A stretch of DNA of 44,026 bases, the filler included, from Jimgerdemannia flammicorona (lineage: Eukaryota), in the NCBI GenBank assembly GCA_003990765.1. It is 2 parts of 2 records of this genome, joined end to end, with 100 filler letters (N's around TTAATTAATTAA, not from the genome) between each part and the next. Parts side by side here need not be neighbours in the genome. Positions count along the whole stretch, not along the records: positions 22,071 to 44,026 come from RBNJ01001357.1; 1 more part is not named here. One strand, given 5' to 3'. Below are positions 144 to 44,026 of the stretch, one piece after another. Positions within the stretch are counted from its first letter, which is position 1, and every line of letters starts with the position of its first letter. The notes beneath the pieces are model-generated. The model saw only the letters and a list, made by a program, of their open reading frames with translations, searched no databases and was not told the DNA's origin. Made by a program: the position numbers and the translations under genes.

Positions 144-145
<2 letters not shown>

Positions 146-705: not shown

Positions 706-799
706 AGAGGAGTATTTACCAGCACCAAGATTACCGAACTTGAGCATAAGAAGGAGGAAAACACAAGCAAGCATATCTACACCATCAGAAATGAATTTC

Positions 800-2182: not shown

Positions 2183-2369
2183 ACTACCTCCAACTAACAA
2201 ATCAATCATGAATAAGGAGCTCTACTATGGAATTATCACATATGTACCTGGGACAGCGAAAGATGCCCCAATATCTAGAAGAATGGACACAAATGATTAT
2301 CAACAGAACATGGAAATAATTTGAAACTGATGGAGAAACACTGAAGAAAGGAAAACTACTAGTCATACC

Positions 2370-20300: not shown

Positions 20301-20407
20301 AGGGTCGCGAGGAGGATAGTGCGGGTGGTATGAGAGGTACAGTGCCTGCCGTAGAGGTAGAAGAGCTCGGAGACTTCTCGGCGCAGTGGCTCAACCCAAC
20401 GGAACAT
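14361..20407 (-). CDS. SCAP: SREBP cleavage-activating protein (SCAP/Scp1) homologue, 5 exons: 20407-19508, 19372-19045, 18690-18497, 18247-18056, 17795-14361 (about 1682 aa)
   Basis: All four introns are GT..AG with consistent phases (0,1,0,0). N-terminal FYLYGRHC plus a TM helix and luminal loop. Sterol-sensing domain (VKSKYGLG, GLENMFILTNAV, PAVREFCLF, LQMTFFVTVLSVDVRRLE|LADL). C-terminal WD40 repeats (SCGQDGRIVMWD, GSQDGAVKVWN). Confidence 0.93.
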
Positions 20408-21970: not shown

Positions 21971-22070
21971 NNNNNNNNNNNNNNNNNNNNNNNNNNNNNN
22001 NNNNNNNNNNNNNNTTAATTAATTAANNNNNNNNNNNNNNNNNNNNNNNNNNNNNNNNNNNNNNNNNNNN
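21971..22070. other. Assembly gap/artificial contig linker
   Basis: 44 N + TTAATTAATTAA (stops in all six frames) + 44 N, exactly 100 nt. Confidence 0.97.
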
Positions 22071-22160
22071 TGGCGGATGGTGGTAGGGAATAGGAGGGCT
22101 GCCACTAGGCCCATGGGGGTGTGACAGGGGGGGCATAGTGTTGACAGGGGGAGGGGTCAG

Positions 22161-23792
22161 GTGATGAGTCAGGTGATGGGTCAGGTGGCTGGCAGGGGAC
22201 AGGGGTCTGGTGGTGTGACGCGAGGGACTGGTTCTTCTGTGGCTGGGCAGGTGGCTGGGGAGAGGACTGCTGGTGGCACAGCTATACCTGGAAGGACAAC
22301 CACGGGTATGTCAGGGGCTAAGGGAAAGGTGACTCTGGCAGCTGGGACTGGCGAGTTGATAGTGAGGCCCTTCTTCCACAAATCGGTGTCGACATGGGCA
22401 ATCTCGGCAAACTTCCTGGGATTGGCGATGTCAGTGAGGGAGGTTCTGAGGATGGTGGGGGAGGAAGTGGCTGGAGCGGAGTCTCTGAAGTTCATCCCTT
22501 CAGCAGAGGCAGTGGAGATTGGCTTTGTGGAGGAGGATGCAATGGTGAAGGCATTGGAGAAAGGGATGACCGTCAAGGGTGTTAAGATTGGGATGGCAAG
22601 GTGTCTGAGGTGGGATCTGCATGTGGTTCGGCTGGTGGTGGAAGGATTGCCAACCCTGGGCAGGCAGGAGACCAAGGAGATGGTGGTTGAGGCGCTGGGT
22701 GGATATGGTGAGATGGTGGACTTCGGGTTCATGTTCTGGGAGGGTACCAAGTTGAGGAATGGCAACTGCGAGGTGATGCTGCGGCTGGAAGGCAAAGAGG
22801 CAACGGGGCTGGGCTGCGATTGGCCTGAAGGGATCAGGATTGGAGGGCAAGAGTGCAAGGTCTGGAGGAGGAAGGGAGCAGAACAGGAGGAGGAAGAGTT
22901 GGCAATTGCTCTGGAGGAGAGGGAGGCTGCCAAGGAACTGCGGAAGAGGAAGTGGGAGGAGTATGCCAAGGATTGGGTCTGGATTCAAGCAGATGGCAAG
23001 CGGAAGAGGTGGAGGAAAGGGAATTGGGAGCGTCTGCAGGTGGCCCTCCAAGGGGCAGCAGTGGAAGAGGAGGCGAGAGCAGAGGCCACCAAGAATCAGA
23101 TGGAAGGAGTGGAGGCAGCAGAGGTTTCCCTCTCCCAGCTGGGTGGTGTGGAGGACTCAGCACATGCGCCGGTGAGAGGAAAGTGGGCAGATAAGGAGGA
23201 GGTTGGTGAGGGAGGCTTTGAAGTGGATGACGAAGTGGTGCCGGAGACTCAGGTGGAGGACACTCATATGGCCGGGGCGGCGAATGTCCATTGGGAGTGC
23301 CCAGAAGCAGGTGAAGTAATTCATTTGGAGAAAGTTGTAGAGGAGGATGAGCTGGTGGATGTGGCTTCAGATGTGTCAGCTGATAGGGAGCAACTACAAG
23401 AGCTGAGCAGGACTCCCAGGCCCTCAACCCCTGGGCCCCTGATGATGACAGCAGAGAGCTGGTACCAGGCGGTGCTTGAGGAGCTGGCGGAGGAAGACAT
23501 CAAGGAAGTGGACATATTTCATGGATCTCAGGAGGCATGGGAAGGATTTCTCAATGTAGCAATGCAAGGGCCCAAGCTGGTGATGGCAATGGTGGCTGCC
23601 CTTCTGGATGATGAAGGATATGATGTGGATGAGAGCAGAATGGCTGACATCAGAAAGGTGGCGACTGAAAGAGTAGACCTTTTCTGCAGCAGTGCAAATG
23701 ATGACCAAATCTGGAGGGCGATTTGCGAGGACCAGCAAGAGATTGTCCGTGGAAGAGCTGAGAAGGTGGTGGCAGTTCCAGCTGAGCTTTAA
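22161..23792 (+). CDS. LINE ORF1 protein (RRM-like domains, acidic C-terminus); true start may lie upstream
   Basis: 543-codon open frame with VEIGFVEEDAMVKAL and LVVEGLP...ALGGYGEMVD...RNGNCEV patterns typical of L1/Tx1 ORF1. It ends 12 nt before ORF2. Confidence 0.8.
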   Translation: MMSQVMGQVAGRGQGSGGVTRGTGSSVAGQVAGERTAGGTAIPGRTTTGMSGAKGKVTLAAGTGELIVRPFFHKSVSTWAISANFLGLAMSVREVLRMVGEEVAGAESLKFIPSAEAVEIGFVEEDAMVKALEKGMTVKGVKIGMARCLRWDLHVVRLVVEGLPTLGRQETKEMVVEALGGYGEMVDFGFMFWEGTKLRNGNCEVMLRLEGKEATGLGCDWPEGIRIGGQECKVWRRKGAEQEEEELAIALEEREAAKELRKRKWEEYAKDWVWIQADGKRKRWRKGNWERLQVALQGAAVEEEARAEATKNQMEGVEAAEVSLSQLGGVEDSAHAPVRGKWADKEEVGEGGFEVDDEVVPETQVEDTHMAGAANVHWECPEAGEVIHLEKVVEEDELVDVASDVSADREQLQELSRTPRPSTPGPLMMTAESWYQAVLEELAEEDIKEVDIFHGSQEAWEGFLNVAMQGPKLVMAMVAALLDDEGYDVDESRMADIRKVATERVDLFCSSANDDQIWRAICEDQQEIVRGRAEKVVAVPAEL

Positions 23793-23804
23793 ACAAACTC
23801 TTTT

Positions 23805-26800
23805 ATGATGAAGAACAATCTACGTATTTTGTCGATCAATGTCAATGGATTGCGGGACAGTGTTAAATGACGGCGGCTGTTCAGATGGCTTAAAGTCAGG
23901 AGGTATGATGTGGTGTTTCTTCAGGATATTAGGGCTTATGGCGAGTCAGATTATGAGATGTAGAGTAAAGAATGATATGGTGGAGCTGGCTGGAATAAGC
24001 AGGTGGGCATCTTGGTTGGCATGGGCAAAGGCGAACTGGTGGAGGTTGAGATCTATGGAGACAGACTGATTTGGGGAAGGATTACAGGAGGGGCAGGTGA
24101 TGGGTTGATGGTTGGCTCGGTTTACCTCCCTGCAGTTGGCAGAGAGCGAAAGCAATGGGTTGAAGAATGGCAGGCATGGGATGGGCAGGAGGAGGTTGCT
24201 TTGGACATTCTGGGGGGGGACTTCAACATGGTGCGTGATTGAACACTAGATAGGTCTGATGGTGGGGCAGGAGTCGTGGTCTCTTCTGGACTTTCGCAAT
24301 GGCTTCAGGTGGAGCATGACATGGGTTTGGTGGATGGTGTTCGTCAATGTCAGGGGGACAAGCTAGGACCTTTCACTCAGTGGCATCCAGTTGGAACAGC
24401 ATTGGTTGGGACACGAATTGATTGGGTGCTAGTGGCAGAGTGTTGGGGCAATGTACTGGATACTGCCGAGGTGCGCTGGTGTCCATGGTCTGATCATTGG
24501 GGTGTGGAGGTTTGCGGTAGATTTCAAGCAACAGGCAGTGGTGGAGGGCGCTGGTGCCTCAATGTGGCCCTACTCAAGAGGAAGACGGTGAGAGATAATT
24601 TCGTGGCAGTGGTGAGACAGGAAGTTGTGCGATGGCGCAATGAAGGACAGTTAATAGCAGAATGGTGGGGTAAATTCAAACATCTGGCTGGGGCCTACTG
24701 GCAGGATGTCAGAGAAGTGGCTGGGAAGGAACAGAAGGACAAGGAGAGAAGAGTAGAGAAGGGGCTGCGATGGCGGTTGAAGCTTTTGGAAAAGGGGGAC
24801 CTGCCTGGAGAGGTGAGCCGCTGATTGGCATTGGAGGTGGCAGAGCTACAGGCGGATTTAAGGGTGTCTGAGACCAGGGTAGTAGATGGCCTGCTGGCCA
24901 GGCTGTGGTCCAGGCAGCTAGAGGAAGGAGAGAGGCCGACAAGATATCTGTCTGGAGTTTTGAAGGCTAGGAGGGTGCAACACAGTTGGGCCTCAGTTTT
25001 GCGAGAAGATGGAGTAAAGGTCTCAGGGATTGCAGACATGTTAGGGGAGGTATCTGGTCAATGGCAAGCTCTTTGGCAGGATAGCGGGGAGCACGCTGAG
25101 GATACAGGGTTTGGAGAGGAGGATAACAATATGGTGACCAATTGGCCAGTGACTGTGATACCTGGGATAGGAGAGGCGGTCATGGGAGAGGTATCTCTAG
25201 ATGAAGTATCGGAAGCGCTGAGGAAGACACAGACTGGTTCATCTCCAGGGGAGGATGGGCTGCCCTGGGAATTCTGGAAGGAGTTTAAGTCGGAGTTTGG
25301 TGACTGGTTGGTGGAGATGGCCAATGCAGTTCTGAAGGAGGGCAGCTGGATTGGAAATGGTTCCTTGGGGCTAGTCTCTCTTCTATATAAGGAAAAGGGT
25401 GATCGACGGGTGTGGCGTAACTGGCGACCTGTCATGCTGCTGAATGTAGATAGAAAGCTAGTTTCGAAGATTCTGGCAGAGAGGATGCAGCAGTATATTG
25501 GTGTGCTGGTTGGAGAAGAGCAGCGAGGCTTTGTCAAGGGGAGGCAGATTAGAGATAGTACTGCTTGGGTGCAGAATGTCTTAGAGGGCTGTAGGAGCTG
25601 GCAGGTAGATGGCCAGATGGTCTTTCTGGATCAAGAGAAGGCCTATGACAGAGTGCGGTGGAGTTATTTGGAGGTGGTTCTGAGGAGGGCAGGGTTTGGT
25701 GCAGTAGAGGCAGGGTGACTGATGGGCCTGGTAAGGAGATGCCGAGCAGCGGTAATGATGAATGGATGGTGTGGACCAGAGTTTGCCTTGGGGCGAGGGG
25801 TACCGCAAGGGGATCCCTTCTCTCCTCTTCTTTATGTACTTTCTCTGAAGCCTCTGCTGGTGTGGCTGAAGGGGCAGCTCTCTGGTCTGCAGATGGGAGA
25901 TGTGGTCTGGCGGTTGGGTGCCTTTGTGGATGACATGGTGGTAGGGCTGGGTAGCCAGGAGGATGCCGAAGTCCTACAAGAAGGGGTCGGGCAGTATGAG
26001 AGGCTGGCAGGAGCAAAGTTGAACTGGTGCAAGTGTGAGACTATGGAACTTGGTGCTGGCCTGGGGGGACATGGACAATTTGGACAATTGGTAGCTATAG
26101 GGAGTACTGTTCATTATTTGGGTATCTGGTTTTCGGTGTATGGGACAGTCCTACCAAGGGAGTGGTGGTGTGGATTGGTTCAGAAGCTGGAAGGTGTGCT
26201 GACAGGATGGTCAGGAAGGAGCTTTTCATTGCTTGGCAGGATTGTGGTCTTGAATGTATATTGGCTGCCCAAGCTGTGGTATCTGGGTTATTATCTAGAT
26301 TTTCCAGGGTGGGTGGTGCAGCAGCTGAAGAAGATTGTAGAAGAGTGGTTGTGGCAGGGGAGGCGCCCACAGATTGGGTGGGAGACTTTGGTGATGAGGG
26401 TTTCTGATGGAGGCCTGGGGTTGGTGGATTTCAAGCGGTGACTGAAGGTACTTTGGGGCTGGTGGGGGTGCCGACTGAGGGAACTAGGTGAGGAAGGTTG
26501 GGGCAGGCTGGCTATGGACAATTGGGAGGTCAGGTTCTGCCCTCGTGGTGAGGTTTGGAAGGATATGCGGGGTTTGCTGCAGGTTGGAAATGTGGGTAGG
26601 CTGCGGTTTAAGGGGTTCTGGTGGGGCATTGTAGAGGTCTGGCTGGCCATGGGGTTGACAGGCCCAGAGATAGAGGTGGATGAGAACCCTGAGCAGCGAT
26701 GGTGGTGGCTGGGAGACATTCACGTAGGTGGCCACAGTCTGAAGGAGTACTCTCTGATTGAGGCAATAGAGTGGATTAGGTCTGGCCCTCTGGAGAGATG

Positions 26801-27437
26801 GCCGCCTGGTTGGCAGAGAGCTGGTATTGGTGAAGACTGGGAGTGGGGTCAAATTTGGAATTGGGGCGACTCCATCCACAAGATGATACCACTCAAGTAT
26901 TGGGTAGTTTGGTGGCGATTCCTGAGACATAATGTGATGCTGAGCTACCGGACGGGCTGGATGGAGATTGATGGCTGCCAGGACTGTGAGTGGTGCAATG
27001 AGGTGGATGGCAGGGTTGTTCAGACACCTGAACATGTCCTGGGGGCTTGCCCAGGCGTAGAAGGGTTTTGGCAGAGCTTGGAGGGGTACTGGGACCCAGC
27101 GGGGCATAGGGCAGAGGATCCGACCAGTCTGGTGGTCAAGCGCTGGCTGATAGGGGAGATTGGTGACATATGGGGGGGCCTTGGTCGAGTATTGGGGGTC
27201 TGGGTCTTGATGGCAGTACATTGGTGGTGGATTTTCGAACAGGACCCATGGATGGGGATTGGAGAGATGGTAGAGTGGTGGAGGTGGCTTCTCTAGGAGG
27301 TGGTTCAGGGGTGGTGGTATCAGGGGAAGCAACTTTGACCTGGGGCACTAAAGAAGGTACAGGACATTGTCCAGCAGAGCCGAGGGTACCTAGTGCTAGA
27401 TGATCGTGGGGTGAGATGGAAGGAAGGAGTTGGCTGA
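23805..27437 (+). pseudogene. LINE ORF2 (APE endonuclease, RT, C-terminal CCHC), about 1210 codons in one frame with premature stops only
   Basis: SINVNGL, FLQD, GGDFN, RIDW, SDH; SPGEDG, NWRPVMLLNVD, DQEKAYD, GVPQGDPFSP, AFVDD, YLGI; CEWC...EHVLGAC. Confidence 0.95.
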
Positions 27438-27540
27438 AGTATGCTACTTATGTATATTATGTGGTGTTAGTAGTGTATTGGGGTTTGTGGTTATTGTATT
27501 AGATAGTTCGTAATAAAGGAGTCCATGTGACTATAAAAAA

Positions 27541-28293
27541 GGCAGTATGCCATCGGAACACACACCTCCCCAACTATCAATCCAACCTTCAGCGCTTCCT
27601 CCAAAGACTCAGCCTCCTCAAAGCCCACCTCCACTCCCTCCAGTTTCTTCAAAAACTTTACAGACGCTGCTCCAGCCACCTGCTTAGCAATCAGCCCCAG
27701 TACTATTTTTGCCATCACTGCTAGGCCCTGGAAGCACAGTGTCACCATGAATACCAAGATCGATTTCTTGAGTAACAGCGCCACCACCAGGCCTGTTACA
27801 CCATCTGCCAAATCTCCTTGTCTTCCAAGCCCCAGTCACTCAGCCTTGCCATTCATAGTCACATCTGGATTTTTTTCCAGATTAGCAGTCCCTTCTCCAT
27901 CAGCCATCACACCCCCCCCAGCCACTACACCCCCAGCCCCACCACCTCTCCTGCTAAGGGCTACTCCCCCCTGTACTGCCACCTTCTCTGTTTCCTTGCC
28001 CTTTCTCAGCCAACTCTCCAGCCCCAATGTCTACCTTCTCCCCTTCACTGTCTCCACAAAGCTTGCCCTCCCAGATCCCTGTCCTCCACTACTGCCTCCT
28101 CCCCTTCCACGTCCACCTGCCAGCAGCCCCCTCATACCTCCCCCCAGGCCAGGGCCTCTCCCCACCTGCTGCCAGTTGAACATGCTCAGGCCACCCTACC
28201 CAGTACATATCTCAGATTGCCTGTCAGTTGCCATGTTGCTAGTCTCTTTTCTCCAAAAACAATGTTGTAGTTGCTTTACAAAGGTTGTGTAAC
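27541..28293 (-). mobile_element. 5' fragment (ORF1 start) of a related LINE, interrupted by the + strand LINE
   Basis: QVAGAASVKFL..VEVGFEE..LEEALKVGL..VPMAYCL aligns by eye with ORF1 at 22161. Begins GTTACAC on the minus strand. Confidence 0.8.
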
Positions 28294-29899
28294 CTGAGTG
28301 ATACCAGAGAGAGATGCTCAGACTTCATTCCACCCCTTCTCTGGTACATCCACCAGCTCATCCTCACTAACTGCTACCACCTGTCTCTCTTTTGCCAAAT
28401 CTGGGACTCCAAAGTAGACCTGCTTGGCACCACACATCTGCACATCCTCTGCTGCCCTGCTCTTTACAGCAGGACCCTACCTGATCAGAGGGAGAGTATC
28501 CTCCACAACAGGTTCCCAGACTTCAAACATATCATCCTCAAATGGGTCCACCCATAGCATCTTCCCAGCCTCCTCCAGAACCCTCTCTACCACTTCTCCT
28601 CTCTTACTGGCCCAGACACTCACCTCTGTACCCCCAGACTTCTCAATACTACCATCATTCTTCTTCACTCTCTCTTCCATACTCACCAACAGCTCTCTCT
28701 GTCTCTTATACCCCTGAGCCCTTTCCCACTGCCTCCTGTTGGTATAGATATGCTTTCCTTCCATAATCTCCAAATGTGTCAACTCTACATATCTCTTCCA
28801 GGCCTTCACCCTCCACTTGACAGCTCCACTCATCTCTTCCAGAGCCTCTAGCAGCTCCTCCTCCTCCTCATCACTCTCTTTCACCCTTGATACCTGACAG
28901 ATGAAAGCCCTCTATAGCATCACTGATGGCCAGTCGCTTGTCTTTCCAGTGGCCTCCTTCCCTGCCAGCCAAATCCTGATGTCAACATCTCCAGTCCTGA
29001 TAGTGGTCTCCTTCTATATCTGGAAATCAATATCCACCACATCACCATACTCTGCCATCACCTCCTCAACCCTCCTCCTTGTCTCAACTGCCATTACTGT
29101 AGACACCCCCTTTACCAGCAGCTGAACCACTCTGGGTCCCATCTAAGACAGTGTACCATAGGAACTACCACTTCTCTGACCACTACTCCAGTCTTCAGAG
29201 CCTCATCCAGTGGGCCTCCTCAAAGCCCACCTCAACCCCCTCCAGACCCTTCAGGAACTTCACCAAAGTGGCCCCAGCCACCTGCTTTGAGATAAGCCCC
29301 AGGACCATCCTCACCATTACTGCCAAGCCCTAGAAGTATAAGGTAGCTACAAACTCCAAGATAGACTTCTTGAGCAATGGTGCCACTACCAGCTCTGTCA
29401 CACCATCTGCCAGATCCCCCTTCTGCATAGGAACCTCTGCCCCACCTTGCCATTAGCCATCACATCTCTTTTTTTTTCCTGATTCTTTGTCACACTTCCA
29501 TCAGCAGTCCCACCTCCAGCCACAGCACCTCCAGCCCCTACACTCATATCCCTCATCTGGAAACTGCTCCCCCTACTGATGCTAGTCTTGTTCTTCCCCT
29601 CAGCAGCACTAGCCCTAGCTCCAACTGGCCATCCACTCCCCTTCACCTTGTCCACAAAGCTAGGGAGGCCAGGCCTTCCCCTACTTCCACCTAATATCAG
29701 TCCTTTACCAGATTCCTCTCCACCCTTCAACCCTCCAAAGGCTCCCATCCCCAGTCCAAAACCTCTCCCCACATTCTGCCAGCTGAATGCCCCAGGTCCA
29801 CCTGACCTAGTATATCTATCAGAACTCTTGCTCGATGACATTTTTATAGTACCTTTTCTCCAAGTTGTATTGAAAAATGTTGCTTGAAGTTGGTGTAAC
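28294..29899 (-). mobile_element. Second 5' LINE fragment (decayed ORF1)
   Basis: Homologous to 27541-28293 and to ORF1 (EEEEELLEALEE...RVKAWKRY). Also begins GTTACAC. Confidence 0.8.
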
Positions 29900-31969
29900 A
29901 TGAATTGTACAGTAGAAAGGTCCCATGCAATGTGTTACCAAATATATTTATAAAAACAATATACAAATTATGGGTCCCATCAACCATCAACAACTTACCT
30001 CAAAGAGAACTAGCCAAACCTCTGTAAAAAGCCTCATTAATCAATACCAACTTTCTATTGCACCCTTCTATCTCCCAATATCAACTGGCCTTGACTCTCT
30101 AAAATAATATTCTATATCTTCTTTACTGTCCCCAGCTCCCACTACCTCTCCTGGGACTTCTACTCTTGTACTATCTCTCTTATAAACCAGTACTATTACT
30201 TTACCAATTCTCCAATCCCCATCCAATATTCACTCTTGAAGACCCATCACCAGCCATCAGGACCCACACTCCTATAATCTATCCAACATTTCCCCAGATA
30301 TCACCAATATCTCCCACCAACCTCCTCTGAATCACTATACTGACAGAGTCCTCAGACCTTCTACCCCCAGTGCTCCAGTACTCCTCCAAGGTCTGCTAAT
30401 AATCTTCTACCCCAGGACAGGTCACCAAGATATGCTCCAGAGTCTAAACTACCTCCCCAGAGGATTCAGTATACTATTTGCAATCCTAACATCCATCTAT
30501 CTCCATCCAACCTGTCTGATAGTTTAACATCACATTTCTCCTCAAGAACTACCACTACACTATCTAATACCTAGGGGGTACCACCTGATATAACTTAGCT
30601 GTCTAACTCCAGACCCAACTCTACTCCCACATCTCTCCAATTCCAGCCATCTACTAACCAACTAGCCACCTCTCCAGTAGTTCTGTCCTAGCCCATTCTA
30701 TAGCCTTGACTAATGAATATTCCTTCAATATCCTACTACCTATCCTGAGCAACTCCAATCTCTACTACTATTACTCAGGGTCAACAATCTCCTCTATCTC
30801 AGACTCTGACAATCTTATGGCTAGCCAAGTCTCCACAATACTCTAATAGAATCCTTTATACCACAACCTACCAACTATTCCAACCCAGAGCAACCCTCTC
30901 ATATCCTTCCACTCCTTGCCCCTAGGGCAGAATCTAACCTCCCAATTGTCTATTACCAATCTGCCCTAGTCTCCCTCTCCTATCTCTACCAGATGGTATC
31001 TCCACCAGCTACTGAGGGTCTTCAGTTGCTGCTGAAAGTCCACCAGCCCCAGGCCCCTATCAGTAATTGATAGCACCAATGACTTCTATCTAATCTGCAG
31101 TCACCTCTCTCATCAAAGCCACTCTTTAACAGTCTTCTTCAGCTGCCACACTACCCACCCAGAAAAGTCCAAGTGATAATCCAGATACTACAACTTTGGA
31201 AGCCAGTATACATTCAAAACCACCACTCTCTCCACCAGGGAGAAGTTATGTTCAGACCAATCTGTCAAAATGTCTTCCTATTTCTTCACTATCCCACACC
31301 ACTACTCTCTTGATAGAACTGTCTCAAACACTATAAACTGGATACCCAAATATCTAACAGTCTCTCCAGTAGATACAATCTGTCCAAACCCACCCTCAGC
31401 CCCTATCCCAGCACCAAGCTCCAAAGTCTCACACTTTTTCCAATTCAACTTTGCTCCCATTAGCCCCTTATACTATTCTATTCCTTCTTGCAAAATTTCT
31501 ACATCCTCAATACTATCTAACTCCATTACTATATCATCTGCAAAGGCCCCTAGCTTCCACACTACCTCTCCCATCCAAAGTCCAGTCAGCTGTCCCCTCA
31601 GCCAGGCCAACACTAGCTCCAAGGAGAGAATATAAAGGAGAGAGGAGAGGGGGTCCCCCTGCAGAACTTCTCTATTCAAGGAAAACTCTGAACCAAACCA
31701 GCTATTCACCAGAACTGCCTCTCTACAGCTATACATCAGTTCCATAAGTCTTTCAACCTCTTCAATACCAAATCCCATCTTGTACAATACAGCCTTCAGA
31801 TAATATCATCTCATCCTATTATATATCTTTTCTTAATCTAAGAAGATCATCCTCCCATCTACTCTGCAACTTCTACAGCCCTCCAAAACATTCTACACCC
31901 AAGCTGTGCTGTCCCTGATCTGTCATCCCTTCACAAAGCTCCACTACTCCTTCTCTACCAGTCTGTCAA
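29900..31969 (-). mobile_element. Decayed 3' half of LINE ORF2 (RT to C-terminus)
   Basis: FVKG.QIRDSTAWV, LQGDPLSSLLY, GAFADD, LNVYWLPKL. Colinear with 25500-27437. Confidence 0.9.
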
Positions 31970-32499
31970 CTTGGCAGGCTGGTAGGAGAGGAGTAGTGGA
32001 GGAGTGGAGGAAGAGGGCCCAGTGGGAGCCAGGGGAGTGAACCCAGAGTCAGTGTCAAAGTGAACAAAAGACATGTGAAAGAGTGTGTATAAGGGGAACA
32101 AACAAAGAACATAACCAAAAATATATCAGTTGTTTATTGCCATGTAAAAATGCAGTCCTTATATATAAAATATGATATCCCAAAAGGGAGGATACACTAC
32201 AACTTGGGGTGAACTGAATTAGGAACCACATGATTGCCAGAGATAAGTGGAGATAAAGGGAGAGTCAATCTCAGTTACAGAAAAAAAATCACCAACAAAT
32301 ACAAACAAAACAAATTCAAATTGAAATTAAAAAACATCTGCAGACCCCAGAGGGGTGAGCATGAGTGAGGGGTGAGGCTGAAATGGAGTGAGCCACAGCA
32401 AGCCTGAGTGAAGTGAGGGGCCAAAGGCAGCAGAGGGGAGCAGAGTAAGGCTGAGACCCTGGAGTGAGTACAAGATCCTGGAGGGGGCAAGAATGTTTT

Positions 32500-34552
32500 T
32501 TAATCCTCTCCAGCAGAGCTGGAGGCATCAGAAGGTAATGAAAACACAAAACAAGAGTGATGGATTAAAGAAGAAACAAAAGGAAGATGTGAATGAGCAA
32601 TTAGAGGGTGTTGAGAAAGAGATGAAAGTCTAAGGTATAAAAGAGAAGAGTACAGGACAGTGTCAGGGCATTGAGTGACCCAGCGAGCATGATCAAATGG
32701 TATGACAAGAATTGGCAGTGGGAATGAAGAGGGGGTATGGAGAGGTAAGGGGAGAGAGAGGAAAGGAAAGGGGGGTAAAGGGGAGAGAGGAGGGAAGAGT
32801 GAACAACAGACCATTCAACAGAAGCAAGCAGATCATGAATGATAGAAATAGGGTAGACATAACAATGGATCATGAAGTTGCCAAGAACCCAAACAGCAGA
32901 CATCCAGTGAGAATGATGGGAGCAGCAAAGTGCAAGATGACAAATCTCACTACAAATGCATTCAAGAAGAGTGCAATAAGGATGATCGGAAAGGAAGTCA
33001 GAGAACTATTGTGAATGGGGAAATTGAGAATAGACAACAGTCCAGAAGGGGGAAAGAGAAATAGAAAGGTCTAAAAAGAGAATACTAGTTGTACAACAAA
33101 TCCAAGTAATAGAATGATAGGGAGAGTAGACACCATAGAACACACCAGGAATATCAACACCAGCAATAGCAAGAATAATGAAGTCATCAATGTATTGGCA
33201 AAAGAAGATATCCCCAGCCTAGAACATGATGGAAAGAGATGAAGAAGGATTACATATTGCACAAAGTTCATGGGTCAGGCTGACAAGGTTGGCAAGAGTG
33301 GGGGCACAATTCATTCCCATAACAATACCAGAAGTCTGGTGAAAAGAGCTGAGGGCTGACTTGAAGTAGTTGGAGCCATAAACAAGGAGCATAAGCTCAA
33401 CAATGGAAGCCAACAAAACTAGAGAATCTAAAGAAAAAACAATGGAACCCAGGAAGTGAAGACAATTATCAATCTCATCAAAATAAATAGCAGTGTAGAA
33501 GGAGGAGAAGTCACTAGAGGCCAAATGGGAAAATGGTGAACAGGCACAATGGTGGAGCAGAGAAGGGTGAGCTCCTGAGTATTATGAAGAATTGTGTACT
33601 CAGGCCCAAGATGGTGTTGTAGAAGAGCCATCTAAGAGAGGAAGAAGCAGGATAACCACTTCGAAATCTCAGTAGTAGGAGAGCAAAAAGCAGCCATAAT
33701 GGGATGCCAAGCCAGAGTAGGCTTGTGGACTTTAGGAAGAGCATAGAAAACCAGGAGATGAATGTCCAGCAAGAACAAAGAGTCCTGGAAGAAGTTAAAA
33801 ATGGGTTTCACAAAAGGAGAATCTGAAAGTAATCTGGTATAAGCTAGGGAAACCCAAAGGAGAGTGAGAACCTCATCCAATCCAAGAGCACTAGGCTCAT
33901 AAGCTGTGGCTCAAAGGAGGGCAGAAAGGCCATCAAGGTAGAGCAACTTAGGAATAAGTACAAAGCCTTGATTCTTATCAGTAACTGTGAGCAAATACAA
34001 AGGCAATTGCTTGACTGATTTAAGTGCAGTATGTATGGCATGGTCTGAAACCAAGCAAGAGTGAGCATGTCCAGGAATGGACAGTGAGCAAGCCATATCA
34101 AGAATTACACAGTGTGAAGAGACATTGGGAGGGGGGACCCAATTGCTAGGAATATAATAGTGAGAGAGTATCTCACCATGATCCTCAAAGAAGATGGCAA
34201 GGTCAAGAGCACAATGAAAATGTATAAGACGAGCTGGATCAGTGAAGGAGAATTGTGAGAGAGTTACAGGAAAAACAAAGTGAGGATCCAAGGATAAGGC
34301 AAAGACTTGAAGGGGAGAAAGAGAGCAGTTAGCCGAAGAGAAAGGAGGAGACAAAAGCATTCCAAGAGAAGAATAAACCTGAAAATTCGGGATAAGCAAC
34401 TGAGAAAGATGAAGGGGGGACAGTATGAGGAACCACTCAGGGTACACCAGAAGTGATGATGGAATCTAAGAAGAGACAGAGACACCAGGGAAGAACCATA
34501 CCAGGGGGAAGTTTAAGAGTGGGAGGCCTTCCCCTTCCCTCTGACTTTTTTT
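32500..34552 (-). pseudogene. Penelope-type reverse transcriptase, copy 1
   Basis: LSLDPHF, SNWVPP, TDKNQG, FYALPKVHK..WHPI..SPTTEISKWL, DFSSFYT, NYF..QTSGIVMG..APTLANL, YIDD, thumb region, LVIPF. No GIY-YIG motif seen. Confidence 0.88.
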
Positions 34553-35726
34553 GAAGGTGGCAAACCCAATGAGCAGGAGCACACTCCATCAGAGTGCCAG
34601 ACCTTGCAGCCACAGGCTTTTGTGCAGCCTTTACATTCAGAGACATGGGTAGAGGAGACAGAGGAGGAGCCAGTGGAAGAGACAGAGGGGGAGCGAGCAG
34701 CTGAAGGGACAGCAGTACAAGGAACACTACCATGGGAGCAGACAGACTAGTCAGGTACCAGTAGGTATGGTGGAGGCAACCAGAGCAAACAGCATATGGC
34801 CAGGCCCTGACAGGGTGAGAACTAAGTTGACAGCCATACTTGGGGGCAGGGGGAACAGAGGAGGAGGCCTTGGCAGGGAAGGGAGACTGAGAAGAGGCTG
34901 ATGAAGCCTGGTTGGGCTTGGTGGGGGTCTTGGTGGGGGCTTTGGCAGTGGCAGCAGTGAAGGAATGGACCTTGGTATAGGTGGTGGCATGAGCCTTAGC
35001 ATGGATGGCCTTGGAGACTGAAACCTCAGGGGAGGCAGATAGGGGAGCAGTGGTGGTAGCATGAGCAGTAGTGGCAGCATGTGATTTTTCCTGCTCATGA
35101 AGACAAGTGACAAAAGAGGTGCTAGTAAGGAGGAAGTGACAAACAGTATCAATGTCAGTAATAGCAGAGAGAACATCTTAGATAGCAAAACCACAGAAAG
35201 GGACAGGATCTATGAGGCGGAAAGTGACAAAGACTATGAAAGTGGCACAGGCATGGTAGAAGGAGGCAGAAGTGGTAGCAGCAGAAGTAGCAGCAGCATC
35301 AGTAGCAGCAAGCTTGGTGGCAGTAGTAGTAGTACAAACCTCTTCAGAGAGGGCTTGGTGGTAGGCCTCAGGAAGAATGGAGTAGTGGATGGCAGGCAGA
35401 GTGATAATGTTGACATTATGATAGAGACAAACCTTCTTGGTGGAGAGGGCAAGAACTGACTGGAACTGAGAGAGGAGCAGATGACCAGAAGGATGAAGGT
35501 TTAGAGGGAGAGACAGAATGGTGGATGAGACATAGGTCTCAAATGAGACAGTGGTGGGGATGAAAGCAGAGAGAGGAGGAGGAAGAACCTCATCCATAAT
35601 CTCATTGATAGAGACAGAGACCCCAAGGACAGACAGTATAGCAGTGGAGGAGGAGGGCCCAGTGAGAGCCAGGGGAGTGAACCCAGAGCCAGTATCAAAG
35701 CAAACAGAAGATATATAGAAGAGCAT
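34513..35726 (-). pseudogene. PLE ORF1, copy 1 (Ala/Thr/Ser-rich, Cys/His clusters)
   Basis: Long, largely open frame upstream of RT, conserved in the three copies. Confidence 0.65.
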
Positions 35727-36144
35727 GTATAAGAGGGATGAACAAAGAATATAACCAAAAATGCATCAGCCATTTATTGCTATGTAAAAATGCAGTCCTT
35801 ATATGTATACAAAATATGATGTCCAAAAAGGGAGGATGTGCCACAACTTGGGGCGAACTGAATTAGAAACCACATGACCACTAGAGATAAGCAGAGATAA
35901 ATGGTGAGCCAATTCCAGTTGCAGGATAAAAATTACCAATAAACACAAACAAAATAAATCCAAATTGAGATTAAAAACCATCTGCAGACCTCAGAGGGGT
36001 GAGTATAAGTGAGGGGTGAGGCTGAAACAGAGTGAGCTGCAGTGAGCCCAAGTAAAGCAAGAGGCTGAAGACAGCAGAGGGGAGCAGAGTAAGGCTGAGA
36101 CCCCAGAGTGAGCATGAGACCCCAGAGGGGGTAAGAATGTTTTT

Positions 36145-38194
36145 TAATCCTCTCCAGCAGAGCCAGAGGAATCAGAAGGTGATGAAAATGCAAAACAAGA
36201 GCAATGGATTAAAGAAGAAATAGAAGGAAGATGCAAATGAGAATTAGAGGGTATTAAGAAAGAGACGAAAGTCCATGGTATAAAAGAGAAGAGCACAGGA
36301 CAGTGTCAGAGTGTTGAGCAACCCAGTGAGTATGATCAAATAGTACAACAAGAATTGGGGGTGGGAATGAAGAGAGGGTATGGAGAGAGTAAGAGAGGAG
36401 AGAGGAAAGAGAAGGGGGGTAAAGGGGAGAGAGGAGAGAAGAGTGAACAACAGACCATTCAACAGAAGTAAGCAGATCACAAATGATAGAAATAGGGTAG
36501 GCATAATGATGGACCACAAAGTTGCCAAGAACCTGAACAGCAGACACCCAGTCAGAATGATGGGAGCAGCAAAGTACAAGATGACAAACCTCACTATGAA
36601 TGCATTTGAGAAGAGTGCGATGAGGATGATTGGAAAGGAAGTCAGAGAACTGTTGTGAATAGAGAAACTGAGAATAGACAACAGTCCAGAAGGGGGAAAG
36701 AGAAATAAAAAGGTCCAAAAAGAGAATACTGGTTGTATCACAAACCCAAGTAATGGAATGATGGGAAGTGTAGACACTATGGAATATACCAGGAATATCA
36801 ACACTAGCAACAGTGAGAATAATAAAGCCATCAATGTATCAGTGAAAGAAGATATCTCCAGCCCAGAACATAATGGAAAGAGATGAAAAAGGATCATATA
36901 TTGCATGAAGTTCATGGGTCAGGCTGATAAGGTTGGCAAGAGTGGGGGCACAATTCATTCCCATGGCAATATCAGAAGTCTGATAAAAAGAGCCAAGGGC
37001 TGACTTGAAGTAGTTGGAGCCACAGATGAGGAGTGTAAGCTTAACAATGGAAGCCAACGAAACTGGAGAATCTAAAGCAAAAACAATGGAACCCAGGAAG
37101 CAAAGACAATCATTGATCTCATCAAAATGAATAGTAGTATAGAATGAGGAGAAGTCACCAGAGGCCAAATGGGAAAAATGGTGAATAGGTACAATGGTGG
37201 AGCAGAGAAGAGCGAGCTTCGGAGTACCATAAAGAATTGTATACTCAGGCCCAAGATGGTGTTGTAGAAGAGCCATCCAAGAGAGGAAGAAGCAGGATAA
37301 CTACTTCGAAATCTCAGTGGTAGGAGAGCAAAAAGTAGCTGTAATGGGACACAAAGCCAGAGTAGGCTTGTAGACTTTAGAAAGAGCATAGAAAACTGGA
37401 AGATGAATGTCTGATAAGGATAAAGAGTTCTGGAAGAAGTTAAAAATGGGTTTGCAAAAGGAGAATCTGAAAGCAACCTGGTGTGAGCCAGGGAAATCTG
37501 AAGGAGAGTGAGAACCTCATCCCATCCAAAAGCACTGCTTGTAAGCTATGGCTCAAAGGAGGGCAAAAAGGCCATTAAGGTAAAGTGACTTAGGAATAAG
37601 TGCAAAGTCTTGATTCTTATCAGTGACTGTGAGCAAATGCAAAGGCAATTGCTTGACCAATTTAAGTACAGTATGCATGGCACAGTCTGAAACCAAGCAA
37701 GAGCAAGTGTATCCAGGAACAGACAGCAAGCAAGCCATGTTAAGGAATATGTAGTGTGAAGAGATATTGGGAGAGGGGACTCACTTGCTAGGAATATAAT
37801 AGCAAGAGAGCATCTCACCATGATCCTCAAAGAAGATAGCAAGGTTAAGAGTATGACAAAAACATGTAAGATGAGCTGGATTAGTGAAGGAGAATTGTGA
37901 GAGAGTTATAGAAAAAACAAAGTGAGGACCCAAGGATAAGGCAAAGACTTGTAGGGGAGAAAGAGAGCAGTCAGCCAAAGAGAAAGGAGGAGACAAAATC
38001 ATTCCAAGAGAAGAATAAACCTGAAAATTTGGGATAAGCAACTGGGAAAGATAAAGAGGAGACAGTATGAGGAATTACTCAGGATATATCCAAAGTGACA
38101 ATAGAATCCAAGAAGGGATGGGGACACTGGGGGAGAACTATGCCAGGGGGAAGTTTAAGAGCAAGAGGCCTTCTCCTTCCCTCTGACTTTTTTT
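36145..38194 (-). pseudogene. Penelope-type reverse transcriptase, copy 2
   Basis: TDKNQ, GDFSSFYTTI, IAMGMNCAPTLANL, (F)LDL, SNHP...CCSH...YAYP. Confidence 0.88.
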
Positions 38195-39361
38195 GAAGAT
38201 AGTGAACCTGATGAGTGGGAGCACACCCCATCAGAGTGCCAGACCTTGTGGCCACAGGCTTTTATGCAGCCCTTACATTCAGGGGCACAGATAGAGGAGG
38301 CAGAGGAGGAGCAAGCAGCTAAAGAGATAGCAGCATGAGGAATACTACCATAGGGGCAGATGGACTTAGTCAGGTGCCAGTAGATATGGTGGAGGTGACT
38401 GGAGCAGACAATACATGGCCAGGCCCTGACAGGGTGAGAACCAAGTTGGCAGCCATGCTTGGGGGCAGGGGTAATAGAGGAAGAGGCCTTGGTGAGAGAG
38501 GGGGACTGAGAAGAGGCTGACAAAGCCTGGTTGGGCTTGGTGGGGGTCTTGGCAGGGGCCTTGGTGATGGCAGCAGTGAAGGAATGGACCTTGGCATGGG
38601 TGGCAGCATGAGCCTTGGTATGGATGGCCTCAGAGACTGAAACCTCAGGGGAGGCAGATAGGGGAGCAGTGGTGACAGCATGAGCAGCAGCAGTAGTATG
38701 TGACATTTCCTACTTGTGAAGGAGTGACAAAAGAGGTACCAGCAAGGAGGAAGCAACAAATGGCATTGATGTCAGTAGCAGTAGAGGGAATGTCTTGGAT
38801 GGCAAAGCCACAGAAAGGGGCAGCATCCTTGAGGCGGGAAGAGGTGAAGGCCACAAAAGCAGTACAGGTATGGTGGAAGGAGGTGGAGGTGGTGGCAGTG
38901 GAAGTAGCAGCAGCATCAGTGGCAGCAAGCTTGGCAGCAGCAGTAGTGGCATGAACCTCTTTGAAGAGGGCTTAGCAGTGGGTCTCAGGGAGAATAGAGT
39001 AGCAGATGGTGGACAGAGTGACAATGTTGATGTCATGGCAGAGATGAGCCTCCTTGGCAGAGAGGGCAAGAACCAACTGGAACTGAGAGAGGAGCAGATG
39101 ACCAGAAGGATGAAGGTCTAGAGGGAGGGACAGAATGGCAGATAAGACATAAGTCTTGAATGAGATAGTGGCAGGGATGAAAGTGGGGGGAGGAGGAGGA
39201 GGAAGAACCTCATCCATAACCTTATTAATAGAGACAGAGGCTCCAAGGGTAGATAGTACAGTAGTGGAGGAGGAGGGCCCAGCGGGAGCCAGGGGAGTGA
39301 ACCCAGAGCCAGTGTCAAAGCAAATAGAAGATATGTGAAAGAGCATGTAGAAGGGAGACAA
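38155..39361 (-). pseudogene. PLE ORF1, copy 2
   Basis: CIVCSSHLHHIYWH and CKGCIKACGHKVWHSDGVC; ends SSKKVRGKEKASCS*. Confidence 0.65.
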
Positions 39362-39994
39362 ACAAAGAATATAACTGAAAATGCATCAGCTATTTATTAC
39401 TATGTAAAAATGTGGTCCTTATATACAAAATACAATATCCCAAAAGGGAGGACATACCACAACTCAGGGTGAACCAAATTAGGAACCACATGACCACCAG
39501 AGATAAGCAGAGATAAAGGGAGAGCCAATCTCAGTTGCAGGATAAAAATCACAAACAAATACAAATAAAACAAATCTAAATCAAGGTTGAAAACATCTGC
39601 AGACCTCAGAGGGGTGAGCATGAGTGAGGGATGAGGCTGAAATGGAGTGAGCCACAGCAAGTCCAAGTGAAGCAAGGGGCTAAAGGCAGTGGAGGGGAGC
39701 AGAGTAAGGTCAAGACCCCCAGAGCAAGTGCAAGATATTAGAGGGGGTAAGGATGTTTTTTAATCTCAATTTGGATTTGTTTTGTTTGTATTTGTTTGTG
39801 ATTTTTATCCTGCAACTAGGATTGGCTCCCCCTTTATCTCTGCTTATCTCCAGTAGTCATGTGGTTCCTAATTTGGTTTGCCCTGAGTTGTGGTGCATCC
39901 TCCCTTTTGGGACATTATATTTTATATATAAGGACCACATTTTTACATGGCAATAAATGGCTGATGCATTTTCAGTTATGTTCTTTGTTCATCC

Positions 39995-41260
39995 CCCTTA
40001 TATATACTCTTCTATATATCTTCCATTTGCTTTGACACTGGCTCTGGGTTTTCTCTCCTGACTCCTGCTGGGCCCTCCTCCTCTATGGCTCCCACTGAAC
40101 CCTCCTCCTCTACTGCTGTACCATCTGCCCTCAGGGCCTCTATCTCTGTCGATGAGGTTATGGATGAGGTTATGGATGAGGTTCTTTCTCCTCCTCCTCT
40201 CCCCACTTTTGTCCCTACCACTGTCTTATTCAAGACCTATGTCTCATCCACTATTCTGTTCCTTCCTCTGGACCTTCATCCTTTTGGTTATCTGCTCCTC
40301 TCTCAGTTCTGGTCAATTCTTGCCCTCTTCACCAAGGAGGCTTGTCTCTACCATGACATTGACATCATCACTCTGCCCACTATCCACTACTCCATTCTCC
40401 CTGAGGCCTGCTGCCAAGCCCTCTCCGAAGAGGTTTACACTGCCACTGCTGCTGCCAAGCTTGCTGCCACTAATGCTGCTACTACTTCTGCTGCCACCAC
40501 CTCCACCTCCTTCAACCATACCTGTACTGCTTTTGTGACCTTTGCCTCTTCCTATCTCACAAACACTGTCCCTTTCTGTGGCTTTGCTGTCCAAGACATT
40601 CTCTCCACCACTGCTGACATCGATGCCATTCATCACTTCCTCCTTGCCAGTACCTCTTTTGCCACTCATCTTCATGAGTAGGAAATGTCACATACTGCCA
40701 CTGCTGCTTGTGCCACCACCACTGCTCCCCTACCTGCCTCCCCTGAGGTTTTGGTCTCTGAGGCCATCCATGCTGAGGCTCATGCTATCACCTATACCGA
40801 GGTCTGTTCCTTCATCACTGCTGCCACCAAGGCTCCTGCCAAGACCCCCACCAAGTCCAATCAGGCTTCATCGGCCTCTTCTCAGTCCCCCTTCTCTGCC
40901 AAGGCCTCCTCCTCTGTTCCCCCTGCCCCCAAGCATGACTGCCAACTTGGTTCTTGCCTCATCAGAGCCTGGCCATGTGCTGTCTGCTCCAGTCACCTCC
41001 ACCATGCCTACTGGTACCTGGCTAAGTCTGTCTGCCCCCATGGTGGTGTTTCTCACACTGCTGCCCCTTCAGCTGCTCGCTCCCCCTCTGCCTCCTCCAT
41101 CAGCTCCTCCTTCGCCTCCTCTACCCATGCCTCTGAATGTAATGGCTGCACAAAAGTCTGTGGCTGCAAGGTCTGATACTCTGATGGTGTGTACTTCTGC
41201 TTGTTGGGTTCGCTATCTTCAAAAAAAGTCAGAGAGAAGGAGAAGGCCTCCTGCTCTTAA
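39995..41260 (+). pseudogene. PLE ORF1, inverted copy (start approximate)
   Basis: ORFs 40085..40681 and 40685..41176 share one frame that ends at TAA 41258-41260. Confidence 0.65.
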
Positions 41261-42437
41261 ACTTCCCTCTGGCATAGTTCTCCCCTGATATCCCTGTCCC
41301 TTCTTGGATTCTATTGTCACTTCTGGTGTGCTCTGAGTGGTTTCTCATGCTGTCCCCCCTTCACCTTTCTCAGTTGCTTATCCTGAATTTTTGTGTTTAT
41401 TCTTCTCTTGAAATGCTTTTGTCTCCTTCTTTCTCTTCAGCTGACAGCCTCCTTTCTCCCCTTCAAGTCTTTGCTTTATCCTTGGGTCCTTGCTTTGTTT
41501 TTCCTATGACTCTCTCACAATTCTCCTTTACTGATCTGGCTTGTCTACACATTTTCATCATGCTCTTGACCTTGCCATCTTCTTTGAGGATTGTGGTAAG
41601 ATGCTCTCTCACTATTATATTCCTAGCAATTGGGTCCCCCCTCCCAATGTCTCTTCACACTACATATTTCTTAACATGGCTTGCTTGCTGTCCATTCCTA
41701 GATACACTCACTCTTGCTTGGTTTCAGACTGTGCCATGTGTACTATGCTTAAATCAGTCAAGAAATTGCCTTTGCATTTACTCACAGTCACTGACAAGAA
41801 TCAAGGCTTTGTACTTATTCCTAAGTTACTCTACCTTAATGGCCTTTCTGCCCTTCTTCGAGCTGTGGCTTACAAGCCGAGTGCTCTTGGATTGGATGAG
41901 ATTCTCACTCTCCTTTGGGTTTCCCTGGCTCACACCAGGTCGCTTTTGGATTCTCCTTTTGTAAACCCCATTTTTAACTTCTTCCAGGACTCTTTGTCCT
42001 TGCCAGAAATTCATCTTCTAGTTTTCTATGCTCTTTCAAAAGTCCTCAAGCCTACTCTGGCTTGGTATCCCATTACAGCTGCTTTTTGCTCTCCTACCAC
42101 TGAGATTTCAAAATAATTATCCTGCTTCTTCCTCTCTTAGATGGCTCTTCTACAACACCATCTTGGGCCTGAGTACACAATTCTTCATAACACTCAGGAG
42201 CTTGCCCTTCTCTACTCCACCATTGTACCTGTTCACCATTTTTCCCATTTGGCCTCTGGTGACTTCTCCTCCTTCTACACTACTATTCATTTTGATGAGA
42301 TCAATAATTGTCTTTGCTTTCTGGGTTCCATTATTTTCCCTTTGGATTCCCCAGTTTTGTTGGCTTTTATTGTTGAGCTTACACTCCTCATCTGTGGCTC
42401 CAACTACTTTGAGTCAGCCCTTGGCTCTTTTCACCAG
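41221..42437 (+). pseudogene. Penelope-type RT, inverted copy, interrupted by a LINE
   Basis: LSLGPCF, SNWVPP, TDKNQG, FYALSKVLKP, GDFSSFYTTI, NYFES..SFHQ, then a switch to LINE sequence. Confidence 0.85.
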
Positions 42438-44026
42438 TCAGTGGCGGATGTTGAGGCGCTTACAAATATAGTGGAATGGTATGAGACACACTCTGGGGTG
42501 AAACTCAACTGGCATAAGTGTGAGACATTGATGTTGGGGAATGGGTTGGTAGGAGGGGATGTCATTGGAACAATTGTCCCCACAGGAGAGGTGGTGTAGT
42601 ATCTCAGTATCTTTCTTTCTGTTTATAGATCAGTCTTGCCACAGGTGTGGTGGGAGAGGAAGGTGGTCATTTGGGGGGAGGCTCTGAGAGGTTGGGGGGG
42701 TCGTCACATCTCCCTGGCAGGGCAGGTATCAATCCTGAATGTGTACTGGTTCCCCAAGCTGTGGTATGTGGTATATCCCTTGGACTTTCCAGCCTGAGTG
42801 GTGAAAAGGCTGATGAAGATGGCTCAGGATTGGATTTGGATAGGTAGAAGGTCACAGATTAGTTGGGATACCCTTGTGGAGCCAGTGGTTAGGGGAGGCC
42901 TTGGTCTTGTGGATTTCCCTAGGAGGCTACACTGTCTGTGAGCTTGGTGGTTGGAAAGGGCAGTTGAACTACAAGGAGGAGGTTGGGTTCCGCTGATGCA
43001 GAAGGTGTGGGAAATGAGATTCTCACCCCAGGGGTCCTCCGGGGACTTGCTCTCTCTGGTGGGGCTGAATGGAAGCCAATGGCTATGTATAAGGGCTTCT
43101 GGTGGGGGGTGGTGGATGGAGCACACTGGATAGGTCTGCGCTGGTGAGGTAATGAGGGGGAGGAGGTGTGGGGCCCTGCTATGTGGCAATGGGACAGACT
43201 GTTACTAGGGGGGGTTCTACTTGTAGAGTTTGATATTGGTGATAGAGTAGAGTGTCAGCGGAGACTTGGCCAGAATCTTTGGCTGAGCAGTTGGCAGATA
43301 GTGGGGATTGGTGAGGAGTGGGACTGGACAGGAATCTGGGCCTGGAGTGCTGTGGTGCAGAGGTGGCTTCCTCCCAAGTTCTGGGTAGTATGGTGGTGAA
43401 TGCTGTGAAGGAATGTTATGTTGAATTTCTGTGCTGGGCATCTGGTGAATGGTGGCCAATTGGATTGTGAGGAGTGTTATAATATAGGGCAAGCTGGGGA
43501 TTTTGTACAGATGCCAGAACATTGGCTGGGAGAGTGTGAGGTATTGGGGGACTTTTGGGTAGCTATAGGGAACAGGCTGGGTGTAGAAAGGAGGCCGGAT
43601 GGTGAGTGAGATCGCTGGGAGGATTTGAGATCTAGACTAGTGGGAGGTATTGGCAATAGGTTGCTCACTGTAGGGTGGGTAATTGCAGTGTGGGTAGGGT
43701 TGGCTGGACATTGGCTATTTGTTTTTGAGGAAGGGTGACAGACAGAGATGTAGGAGAAGTTGGTAAGGTGGGAAGAGTTGATGGGTGATCTTCTTACTGA
43801 GTGGTGGGTGGGTTGGGGTCCTCAGGGTGGGCAATGCTGCCATCTGGTAGAAGGGATCTGTAGCCAGAGTGGTGGGAGGGTAGAGATGGTGGTTGACAAA
43901 GTAGTCTACTATCGAGAGGGTATGGGGAGGGGCCCTAGGGAGATAGGGTAGGGGTGGGGCACTGTGTAATATATAGAGGATAGATGGGTATTAATAAAGA
44001 ATGGAGTCCAAGTGACTATAAAAAAA
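42438..44026 (+). mobile_element. 5'-truncated L1/Tx1-like LINE ending in poly(A)
   Basis: GVKLNWHKCE, LNVYWFPKLW, GGLGLVDF, CEEC...EHWLGEC. Ends AATAAAGAATGGAGTCCAAGTGACTAT(A)n. Confidence 0.9.

Follow-up and report, generated by a model that had tools for sequence, protein, structure and literature searches.

Penelope-like elements (PLEs) that lack an endonuclease (EN) are, according to PMC8557442, generally restricted to chromosome ends, and the primer source of the few dispersed ones is stated there as open. The fungus Jimgerdemannia flammicorona (GenBank assembly GCA_003990765.1) carries a dispersed family of this kind, one copy of which occupies positions 32,002 to 42,437 of the stretch analysed here (the window: 44,026 nucleotides, filler included, joined from two contigs). 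The array is genuine: it is one dead copy of an EN-minus Penelope-like family with a high copy number. Each unit is about 3.65 kb long and comprises a first open reading frame (ORF1), a reverse transcriptase (RT) frame (ORF2), and about 500 non-coding bases that form a pseudo-long terminal repeat (pseudo-LTR). Unit A, unit B, and a single pseudo-LTR lie on the minus strand and are followed by the inverted unit C on the plus strand, in a head-to-head arrangement (Table 1). The initial annotation of the region had described a tandem and palindromic array, which self-comparison of the window and mapping to the family consensus confirm.

Statements on published elements refer to the available parts of the papers cited. 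The EN-bearing Penelope element Pen2a_Av of Adineta vaga has two direct pseudo-LTRs and an inverted, shorter 5' pseudo-LTR with a 15-bp overlap (PMC3846280), and it shares these features, the head-to-head orientation, and the partial tandems with the J. flammicorona family. The family differs in having two ORFs, no GIY-YIG endonuclease domain, no 8-10-bp target duplication, and a fungal host. The same 2013 paper leaves the origin of the inverted 5' pseudo-LTR unresolved and describes the direct-plus-inverted organization as not shared by EN-deficient elements of fungi and protists, a statement that the present fungal family contradicts. The Poseidon element PAc of Anolis has a fixed internal RNA start, extends both DNA strands in vitro, and is a predicted dimer (PMC11167929). 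PAc cleaves its target itself and initiates 111-118 nt within its ORF, whereas the putative start site of the family is upstream of ORF1 and the family encodes no nuclease.

Coprina elements (PMC13159263, PMC8557442) are also fungal and EN-minus, with a telomerase-like RT that has the DKN motif and a thumb. Coprina-1_Alen has two ORFs, with a coiled and disordered ORF1, and the two-ORF Coprina of PMC13159263 is telomeric. Hammerhead ribozymes are reported in fungal EN-minus PLEs (PMC4209133). In contrast to Coprina, the family lies off the telomeres, lacks reverse-complement telomeric repeats and a hammerhead, is arranged head-to-head, and has an RT outside the Pc1-like crown. PLE-X of Chara braunii and Selaginella is likewise EN-minus and apparently genome-wide in Chara, where its authors leave the mechanism open (PMC8557442). 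It belongs to Chlamys and has canonical hammerheads, whereas the family has neither a hammerhead nor an IFD insertion. The spacing from the D of motif 3 to the Q of motif 4, counted by hand, is 58 residues in the family, compared with about 60 in Coprina Pc1 and about 80 in Chlamys-1_pPol in the alignment of PMC8557442. Athena and the Terminons of bdelloid rotifers are EN-minus as well, and their ORF1 and RT can be joined by a frameshift with a pseudoknot (PMC8557442). Unlike the family, Athena is rotifer-specific, telomeric, and hammerhead-bearing. A frameshifted ORF1 is also drawn for animal PLE types, and Naiads are without hammerheads (PMC8557442).

Each trait of the family has a separate precedent, and the family behaves like a canonical Penelope insertion minus the nuclease. 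No dispersed, head-to-head, EN-minus fungal family was found in the literature searched; subscription papers and Repbase lay outside that search, so such a family may be in print. A term search of the available text of PMC13443276, PMC11952901, and PMC8969392 gave no addition on such an element.

The RT of unit B used as a query found 887 candidate places. All 131 that were scored match the family, and 130 of these are other copies, with 72-77% identity. The 3' end is fixed: 28 of the 29 RT loci outside the window end at the same pseudo-LTR position, and the remaining one is cut by a contig end. Beyond the fixed end, 27 of the 28 enter unrelated DNA (long interspersed nuclear elements (LINEs), an LTR element, or AT-rich sequence), and one enters a further truncated unit. 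The fixed outer end lies about 45 nt before the ORF1 start, and the same pseudo-LTR position is found at both outer ends. The partial-tandem organization that yields pseudo-LTRs, characteristic of PLEs, is present, as are the inverted 5' pseudo-LTR and the genome-wide dispersal known from EN-bearing PLEs.

The centre of the insertions is equally precise. It is seen in 17 of 20 RT-selected 10-kb stretches, at the same bases in 16 and at a nearby complementarity in one; the other three stretches begin either past the centre or where a contig ends. At the centre lies a perfect 15-bp inverted repeat; its 5' arm overlaps the RT stop codon, and the repeat forms the closing stem of an imperfect hairpin of about 180 nt. 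The 28-mer spanning the junction has 150 exact occurrences in the genome, against 0 for the control. The hairpin folds stably in a young copy (z -5.2 as complementary DNA (cDNA), -4.9 as RNA), while the window copy is decayed (z 0.9). In its cDNA strand, 67 of the 69 unpaired bases are purines, and it contains GCGAAGC, a very stable DNA mini-hairpin.

An almost invariant junction and identical, inverted ends could also mean that the head-to-head unit arose once and has moved or amplified as DNA with terminal inverted repeats, or that it is an assembly artefact. However, the ends vary by 0-6 nt without a fixed duplication, and each of the two arm arrangements is found with more than one pseudo-LTR haplotype. 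Locus L042 has a variant junction at another short complementarity, and loci L031 and L043 carry 5'-truncated tandem add-ons. Each arm also shows its own CpG decay, which is not expected of mis-assembly. This explanation is very improbable and is already largely refuted. More complex arrays occur at loci L119 (G000:C7023:2000-10254) and L096, with many short pseudo-LTR pieces in both orientations and several junctions, suggesting repeated template jumps.

Insertion sites were compared at 58 loci, 44 of which have both outer ends; 40 of the 58 were picked via the junction pattern, so those loci are uninformative on junction frequency. The outer ends of the 44 insertions extend 0-6 nt beyond the end motif, by 2-4 nt in 72 of 88 ends. 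None of the 44 has a short target duplication of more than 4 nt or an inverted target duplication. Direct duplications of 256, 296, 845, 880, and 1006 bp, with 97-98% identity, are present in five. The empty site could be rebuilt from other copies of the target repeat for 15 of the 44: nine had lost 0-19 bp, three had lost 75-1022 bp, and three were duplicated. Pairing between target and template ends is mostly 0-3 nt. Insertion at internal breaks had been proposed in the initial annotation, and the small losses and missing short duplications agree with it. Break-repair insertions of endonuclease-independent LINE-1 reportedly lack short duplications as well.

The two identical, precise outward 3' ends, together with small deletions and no short duplication, fit priming from both ends of a break. 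As judged from these sequence patterns, both ends of a pre-existing break are probably extended by the RT, with the resulting two cDNAs annealing at the 15-bp inverted repeat. A -1 frameshift would make an ORF1-RT protein, which, with 0-3 nt of pairing, would bind the 3'-OH ends on both sides of an existing break or those of two offset nicks. Reverse transcription would begin from each end at the fixed internal site; in the typical case, one start would use the 3' pseudo-LTR and the other the 5' pseudo-LTR of the same RNA. Tandem units would be added by read-through or template jumps, which would be the origin of the two units of the left arm, A and B. Both cDNAs would halt at the hairpin, the end of one would anneal to the inner 15-bp repeat arm of the other, and host repair would fill in. 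Blunt breaks would leave small deletions, and widely offset nicks would leave long duplications. Annealing at the 15-bp repeat would allow either arm to be trimmed, as is observed.

In fold-back self-priming, by comparison, synthesis is primed by a single target end; the end of the cDNA then folds back at the 15-bp repeat and is extended into the inverted arm as second strand. Priming of this kind had been suggested in the initial annotation and proposed for EN-bearing Penelope (PMC3846280). It predicts the junction sequence exactly, and the purine-rich unpaired bases of the hairpin are in line with it, as is GCGAAGC, which recurs in a second family described below. The only long arm is the would-be first strand, starting at the outer repeat arm, in 34 of the 44 insertions, and both arms are long in three. 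In the other seven, however, only the would-be second-strand arm is long. Fold-back also leaves the identical outer ends unexplained, since the inverted arm ends at the primed-end position though its template continues, and no inverted target duplication accompanies it. Fold-back hairpins at junction flanks number 2 of 85, against 0 of 85 controls, in a test that missed the hairpin of the window itself and so carries no weight. The suggestion of hairpin priming is thus upheld insofar as the 15-bp closing stem fixes the junction, while self-priming from it is unlikely.

Pseudo-LTR variants are compatible with more than one of these schemes. Transversions common to several loci show the two central pseudo-LTRs agreeing and the far one differing in seven loci (hand count), and the differences from the far pseudo-LTR occur also upstream of the TATA-like box. 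This agreement fits two primings on one RNA and also fits fold-back or later gene conversion. An earlier arm-sharing count (174 shared versus 93 shuffled) is confounded by CpG sites and shows only that arms within an insertion belong to the same subfamily.

Several observations weigh against priming at both break ends. It requires an RNA with its start upstream of the TATA-like box. For 29 of the 44 insertions the target could not be rebuilt, and some of these have non-colinear matches on both sides. No insertion with two short arms occurs among 29, although only about one is expected from arm-specific rates, so this absence says little. Locus L050 has the opposite pattern of pseudo-LTR sharing. 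The central pair differs at fewer CpG sites (410, versus 484 and 467; p 0.002), and subsequent gene conversion could account for its likeness. Across transversion and gap sites as a whole, the signal is weak, with 25 far-odd, 17 near-odd, and 15 short-odd. The right arm of the window is cut, so that two-endedness is inferred there from the rest of the family.

The initial annotation had found neither an endonuclease motif, nor a canonical hammerhead core, nor telomeric repeats, and dedicated searches bear this out. The GIY-YIG profile search it had called for used a custom profile built from four EN-bearing relatives, which detects 17 of 172 proteins. It gave no match in the window, the family consensus, or 60 family loci, and Pfam gave no GIY-YIG match in intact ORF1 or ORF2, which leaves a two-ORF unit free of an endonuclease. 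A nuclease acting in trans, from a LINE or from an unseen EN-bearing Penelope, might still supply the 3'-OH ends, with all later steps as in priming from both break ends. LINEs are abundant and flank the array, the long direct duplications fit two offset nicks, and PF01541 has 37 matches in the assembly. Against this, the targets are varied, short duplications are absent from the 44 insertions, and no PLE RT lies beside the 10 best of the 37 GIY-YIG loci. A single Penelope-type EN query had no match in the genome, in a search with no positive control on an assembly of 35,354 contigs. Supply of the ends in trans is accordingly rated quite improbable. Loci L121-L130 carry GIY-YIG matches clustered on few contigs, several of them on C509, without a PLE RT, and these are possibly organellar intron homing endonucleases.

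The hammerhead core CUGANGA is absent from the pseudo-LTR sense strand with one mismatch allowed, and neither the consensus of this family nor that of the second contains a core. Rfam has no hammerhead match in the window or in a young copy; this negative covers the core motif and Rfam, not ribozyme types outside Rfam. The Rfam matches that do appear in the window and the young copy were dismissed as chance hairpin matches. No TTAGGG or CCCTAA hexamer lies within 32002-42437, and telomeric hexamers in the 60 family loci never stand two or more in a row. Host contig ends do bear TTAGGG arrays. Among the first 10 telomere contigs listed, no telomere end has family DNA or any PLE RT within 8 kb, while the same profile detects the window copies. 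A high GC content and similar terminal sequence in several of the telomere-adjacent 8-kb stretches (L143, L144, L146) hint at a common subtelomeric element other than a PLE.

The majority consensus derived from 22 units has a length of 3657 bp. Its ORF2 frame has 696 codons, lies in the -1 frame relative to ORF1, and overlaps it at A-AAA-AAA, which is intact in 22/22 units. The family thus has the overlap of ORF1 and RT at a putative slippery site that is known from Athena, and ORF1 and the RT are probably joined by a -1 frameshift at this heptamer. Complementary stretches downstream of the site could pair as a predicted pseudoknot. At L029/L046 (G000:C3984), a 2-nt deletion at the slippery site fuses ORF1 and ORF2 into one frame of 1056 codons.

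ORF2 contains the RT motifs DKN, SGDFSSFYT, GIAMG..CAP..ANL, YIDD, and SNHP. The core RT motifs, DKN, and thumb align with PLE-type RTs. Its predicted structure has a predicted local distance difference test (pLDDT) value of 84, and the top two Foldseek matches are telomerase RTs (E 1e-8). ORF2 ends about 30 residues past the last motif common with the EN-bearing relatives, whose proteins go on into GIY-YIG. ORF1 comprises a helical N-terminal half, a low-complexity linker, and two Cys/His clusters. A Pfam scan of intact ORF1 found no family, its structure prediction is of low confidence (pLDDT 46), and the ESM Atlas gave weak nameless leads only (0.79 and 0.75). A sequence search of the PDB returned weak RT matches only and no solved PLE protein.

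The same genome contains a second EN-less family, a sister of the first. Its ORF2 (679 codons) has about 41% identity to that of the first, and the two-ORF -1 overlap is the same, at A-AAA-AAC in 7/9 copies and G-AAA-AAC in 2/9. Its ORF1 is a related Cys/His protein. It has its own hairpin of about 200 nt after the stop codon, with a 34-nt motif common to both families, and purines make up 40 of the 50 unpaired bases in the cDNA strand. The 3' end is fixed just upstream of ORF1, and oligo(A) is present in 7/9 outer ends seen. Loci L153-L169 (e.g. G000:C11, C720, C6377) include paired opposite-strand RT matches on five contigs, which suggest a head-to-head layout for this family as well.

The best matches of a protein search among 1.84 billion representatives were one protein with 50% identity and a few with 31-37%, including one from Racocetra fulgida. 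The RT tree comprises 144 of 156 rows (12 lacked the trimming motifs), with a 52-row subset for support. The family and its closest relatives form one clade in the 144-row tree, made up of EN-less RTs and supported at 100/99 in the subset. It does not fall within the clade of long single-ORF proteins (20 rows, 99/99), which includes the Coprina Pc1-like rows. These rows were recognised by the Pc1 motifs from the available supplement of PMC8557442, and the clade labels are motif-based because no named Coprina, Athena, Chlamys, or telomerase reverse transcriptase (TERT) sequence is among the tree rows. The distinct lineage proposed in the initial annotation is therefore borne out only in part, as a clade of its own, while a sister position to the Pc1-like clade is not rejected (approximately unbiased test, p-AU 0.36).

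The chance that the family is a divergent Coprina in the broad sense, which has lost its telomere-pairing repeats and hammerhead, is put at somewhat below even. This identity is compatible with priming from both break ends. The joined tree permits it, the host is fungal, the RT is EN-minus and without an IFD insertion, and 3 of 66 relatives scanned with Pfam carry GIY-YIG. A two-ORF Coprina is also described in PMC13159263. The position outside the clade with the Pc1-like rows speaks against it, and so do the telomere attachment, telomeric repeats, and hammerhead, all of which were looked for and are absent.

The window array itself is strongly decayed. Units A and B have 84% identity, their substitutions being 494 transitions versus 27 transversions, and the CpG observed/expected ratio is 0.02-0.12 over the array. 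The excess of transitions and the near loss of CpG show that the copies are old and methylation-decayed. All three ORF2 copies are broken: A has five stops and spans three frames, B has seven stops, and C has three stops in two frames and is cut at 42437.

Table 1. Features of the array and its immediate surroundings, in window positions
Feature	Position	Strand	Remarks
Unit A: ORF1, ORF2, 3' pseudo-LTR	32003..35641	-	3' end is the fixed end of the family
3' pseudo-LTR of A	32003..32505	-	hairpin module 32325-32505; TATA-like box at 32165; fixed end CCTCTTCCTCC
ORF2 of A	32500..34588	-	Penelope-type RT and thumb, endonuclease-free; 5 stops, 2 frame changes; YIDD at 33194
ORF1 of A	34513..35597	-	about 363 aa in intact copies
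Putative slippery site A-AAA-AAA, ORF1/ORF2 overlap of A	34546..34552	-	further copies at 38188-38194 and 41221-41227
Unit B, tandem to A	35643..39261	-	pseudo-LTR 35643-36149; ORF2 36144-38230 (7 stops); ORF1 38155-39217
5' pseudo-LTR of left arm	39263..39765	-	begins at 5' arm of 15-bp inverted repeat; decayed hairpin module 39585-39765
Head-to-head junction	39751..39765		15 bp common to both arms; same junction type as other insertions of the family
Unit C, inverted right arm	39751..42437	+	shortened pseudo-LTR; ORF1 40160-41260; ORF2 41185-42437, truncated right before RT motif GIAMG
Target: decayed LINE, RT to zf-RVT region	30198..31970	-	68% identity to LINE 25513-27276 (ORFs match RVT_1, zf-RVT)
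Imperfect palindrome at left junction	31939..32001		about 27 bp of folded-back target LINE DNA; about 7 nt common with element end; absent from other units
Fragment of second LINE family	42438..44026	+	in frame with truncated RT of C; 41-47% amino-acid identity to left LINE
N run between the two contigs of the window	21971..22070		window is two joined contigs

The LINEs on the two sides of the array are both directed away from it and are assigned to different families on the basis of their amino-acid identity. Their reading as one interrupted copy was rejected, as they lie on opposite strands and share only that identity. The palindrome at the left junction was considered as the priming hairpin of the element and rejected, as it consists of target LINE DNA. 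At 42437/42438, either the insertion of a LINE or a deletion later truncated the right arm. The in-frame run of the cut PLE RT into the LINE RT fragment is probably due to chance, and a chimeric gene was rejected because both parts are decayed and the join is found in no other locus. The window end appears to be a contig end, where the right-hand context stops.

Elsewhere in the window, a long LINE copy at 22125-27347 (+) matches RVT_1 and zf-RVT and has milder CpG decay than its neighbours. Two related stretches of about 400 bp at 27539-29538 are 70% identical, and this repeat family is the target of the insertions at L050 and L116. The pol region of a decayed LTR retrotransposon lies at 79-3742, where a dUTPase domain precedes RT and RNase H, and other copies of it are PLE targets. 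A SCAP-like gene at 14361-20674 (-) has a sterol-sensing domain, an NPC1 middle luminal domain, and WD40 repeats, and forms a CpG-intact, GC-rich island; its sole strong match is from Endogone sp. (55%).

Taken together, the family may represent a separate PLE lineage of early-diverging fungi that has two ORFs and a frameshift, lacks a nuclease and a ribozyme, and patches breaks genome-wide, with both ends primed on one RNA and a purine-laddered cDNA hairpin programming the join. This full combination is possible but doubtful. With at least 150 identical junctions, many reconstructable targets, and no confounding nuclease, the questions of priming and of the inverted pseudo-LTR become testable in this family. 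If it is such a lineage, the inverted pseudo-LTR of all Penelope elements would be a trait of the RT together with a cis hairpin rather than of the endonuclease, and the family would be a model for a telomerase-like RT that heals internal breaks.

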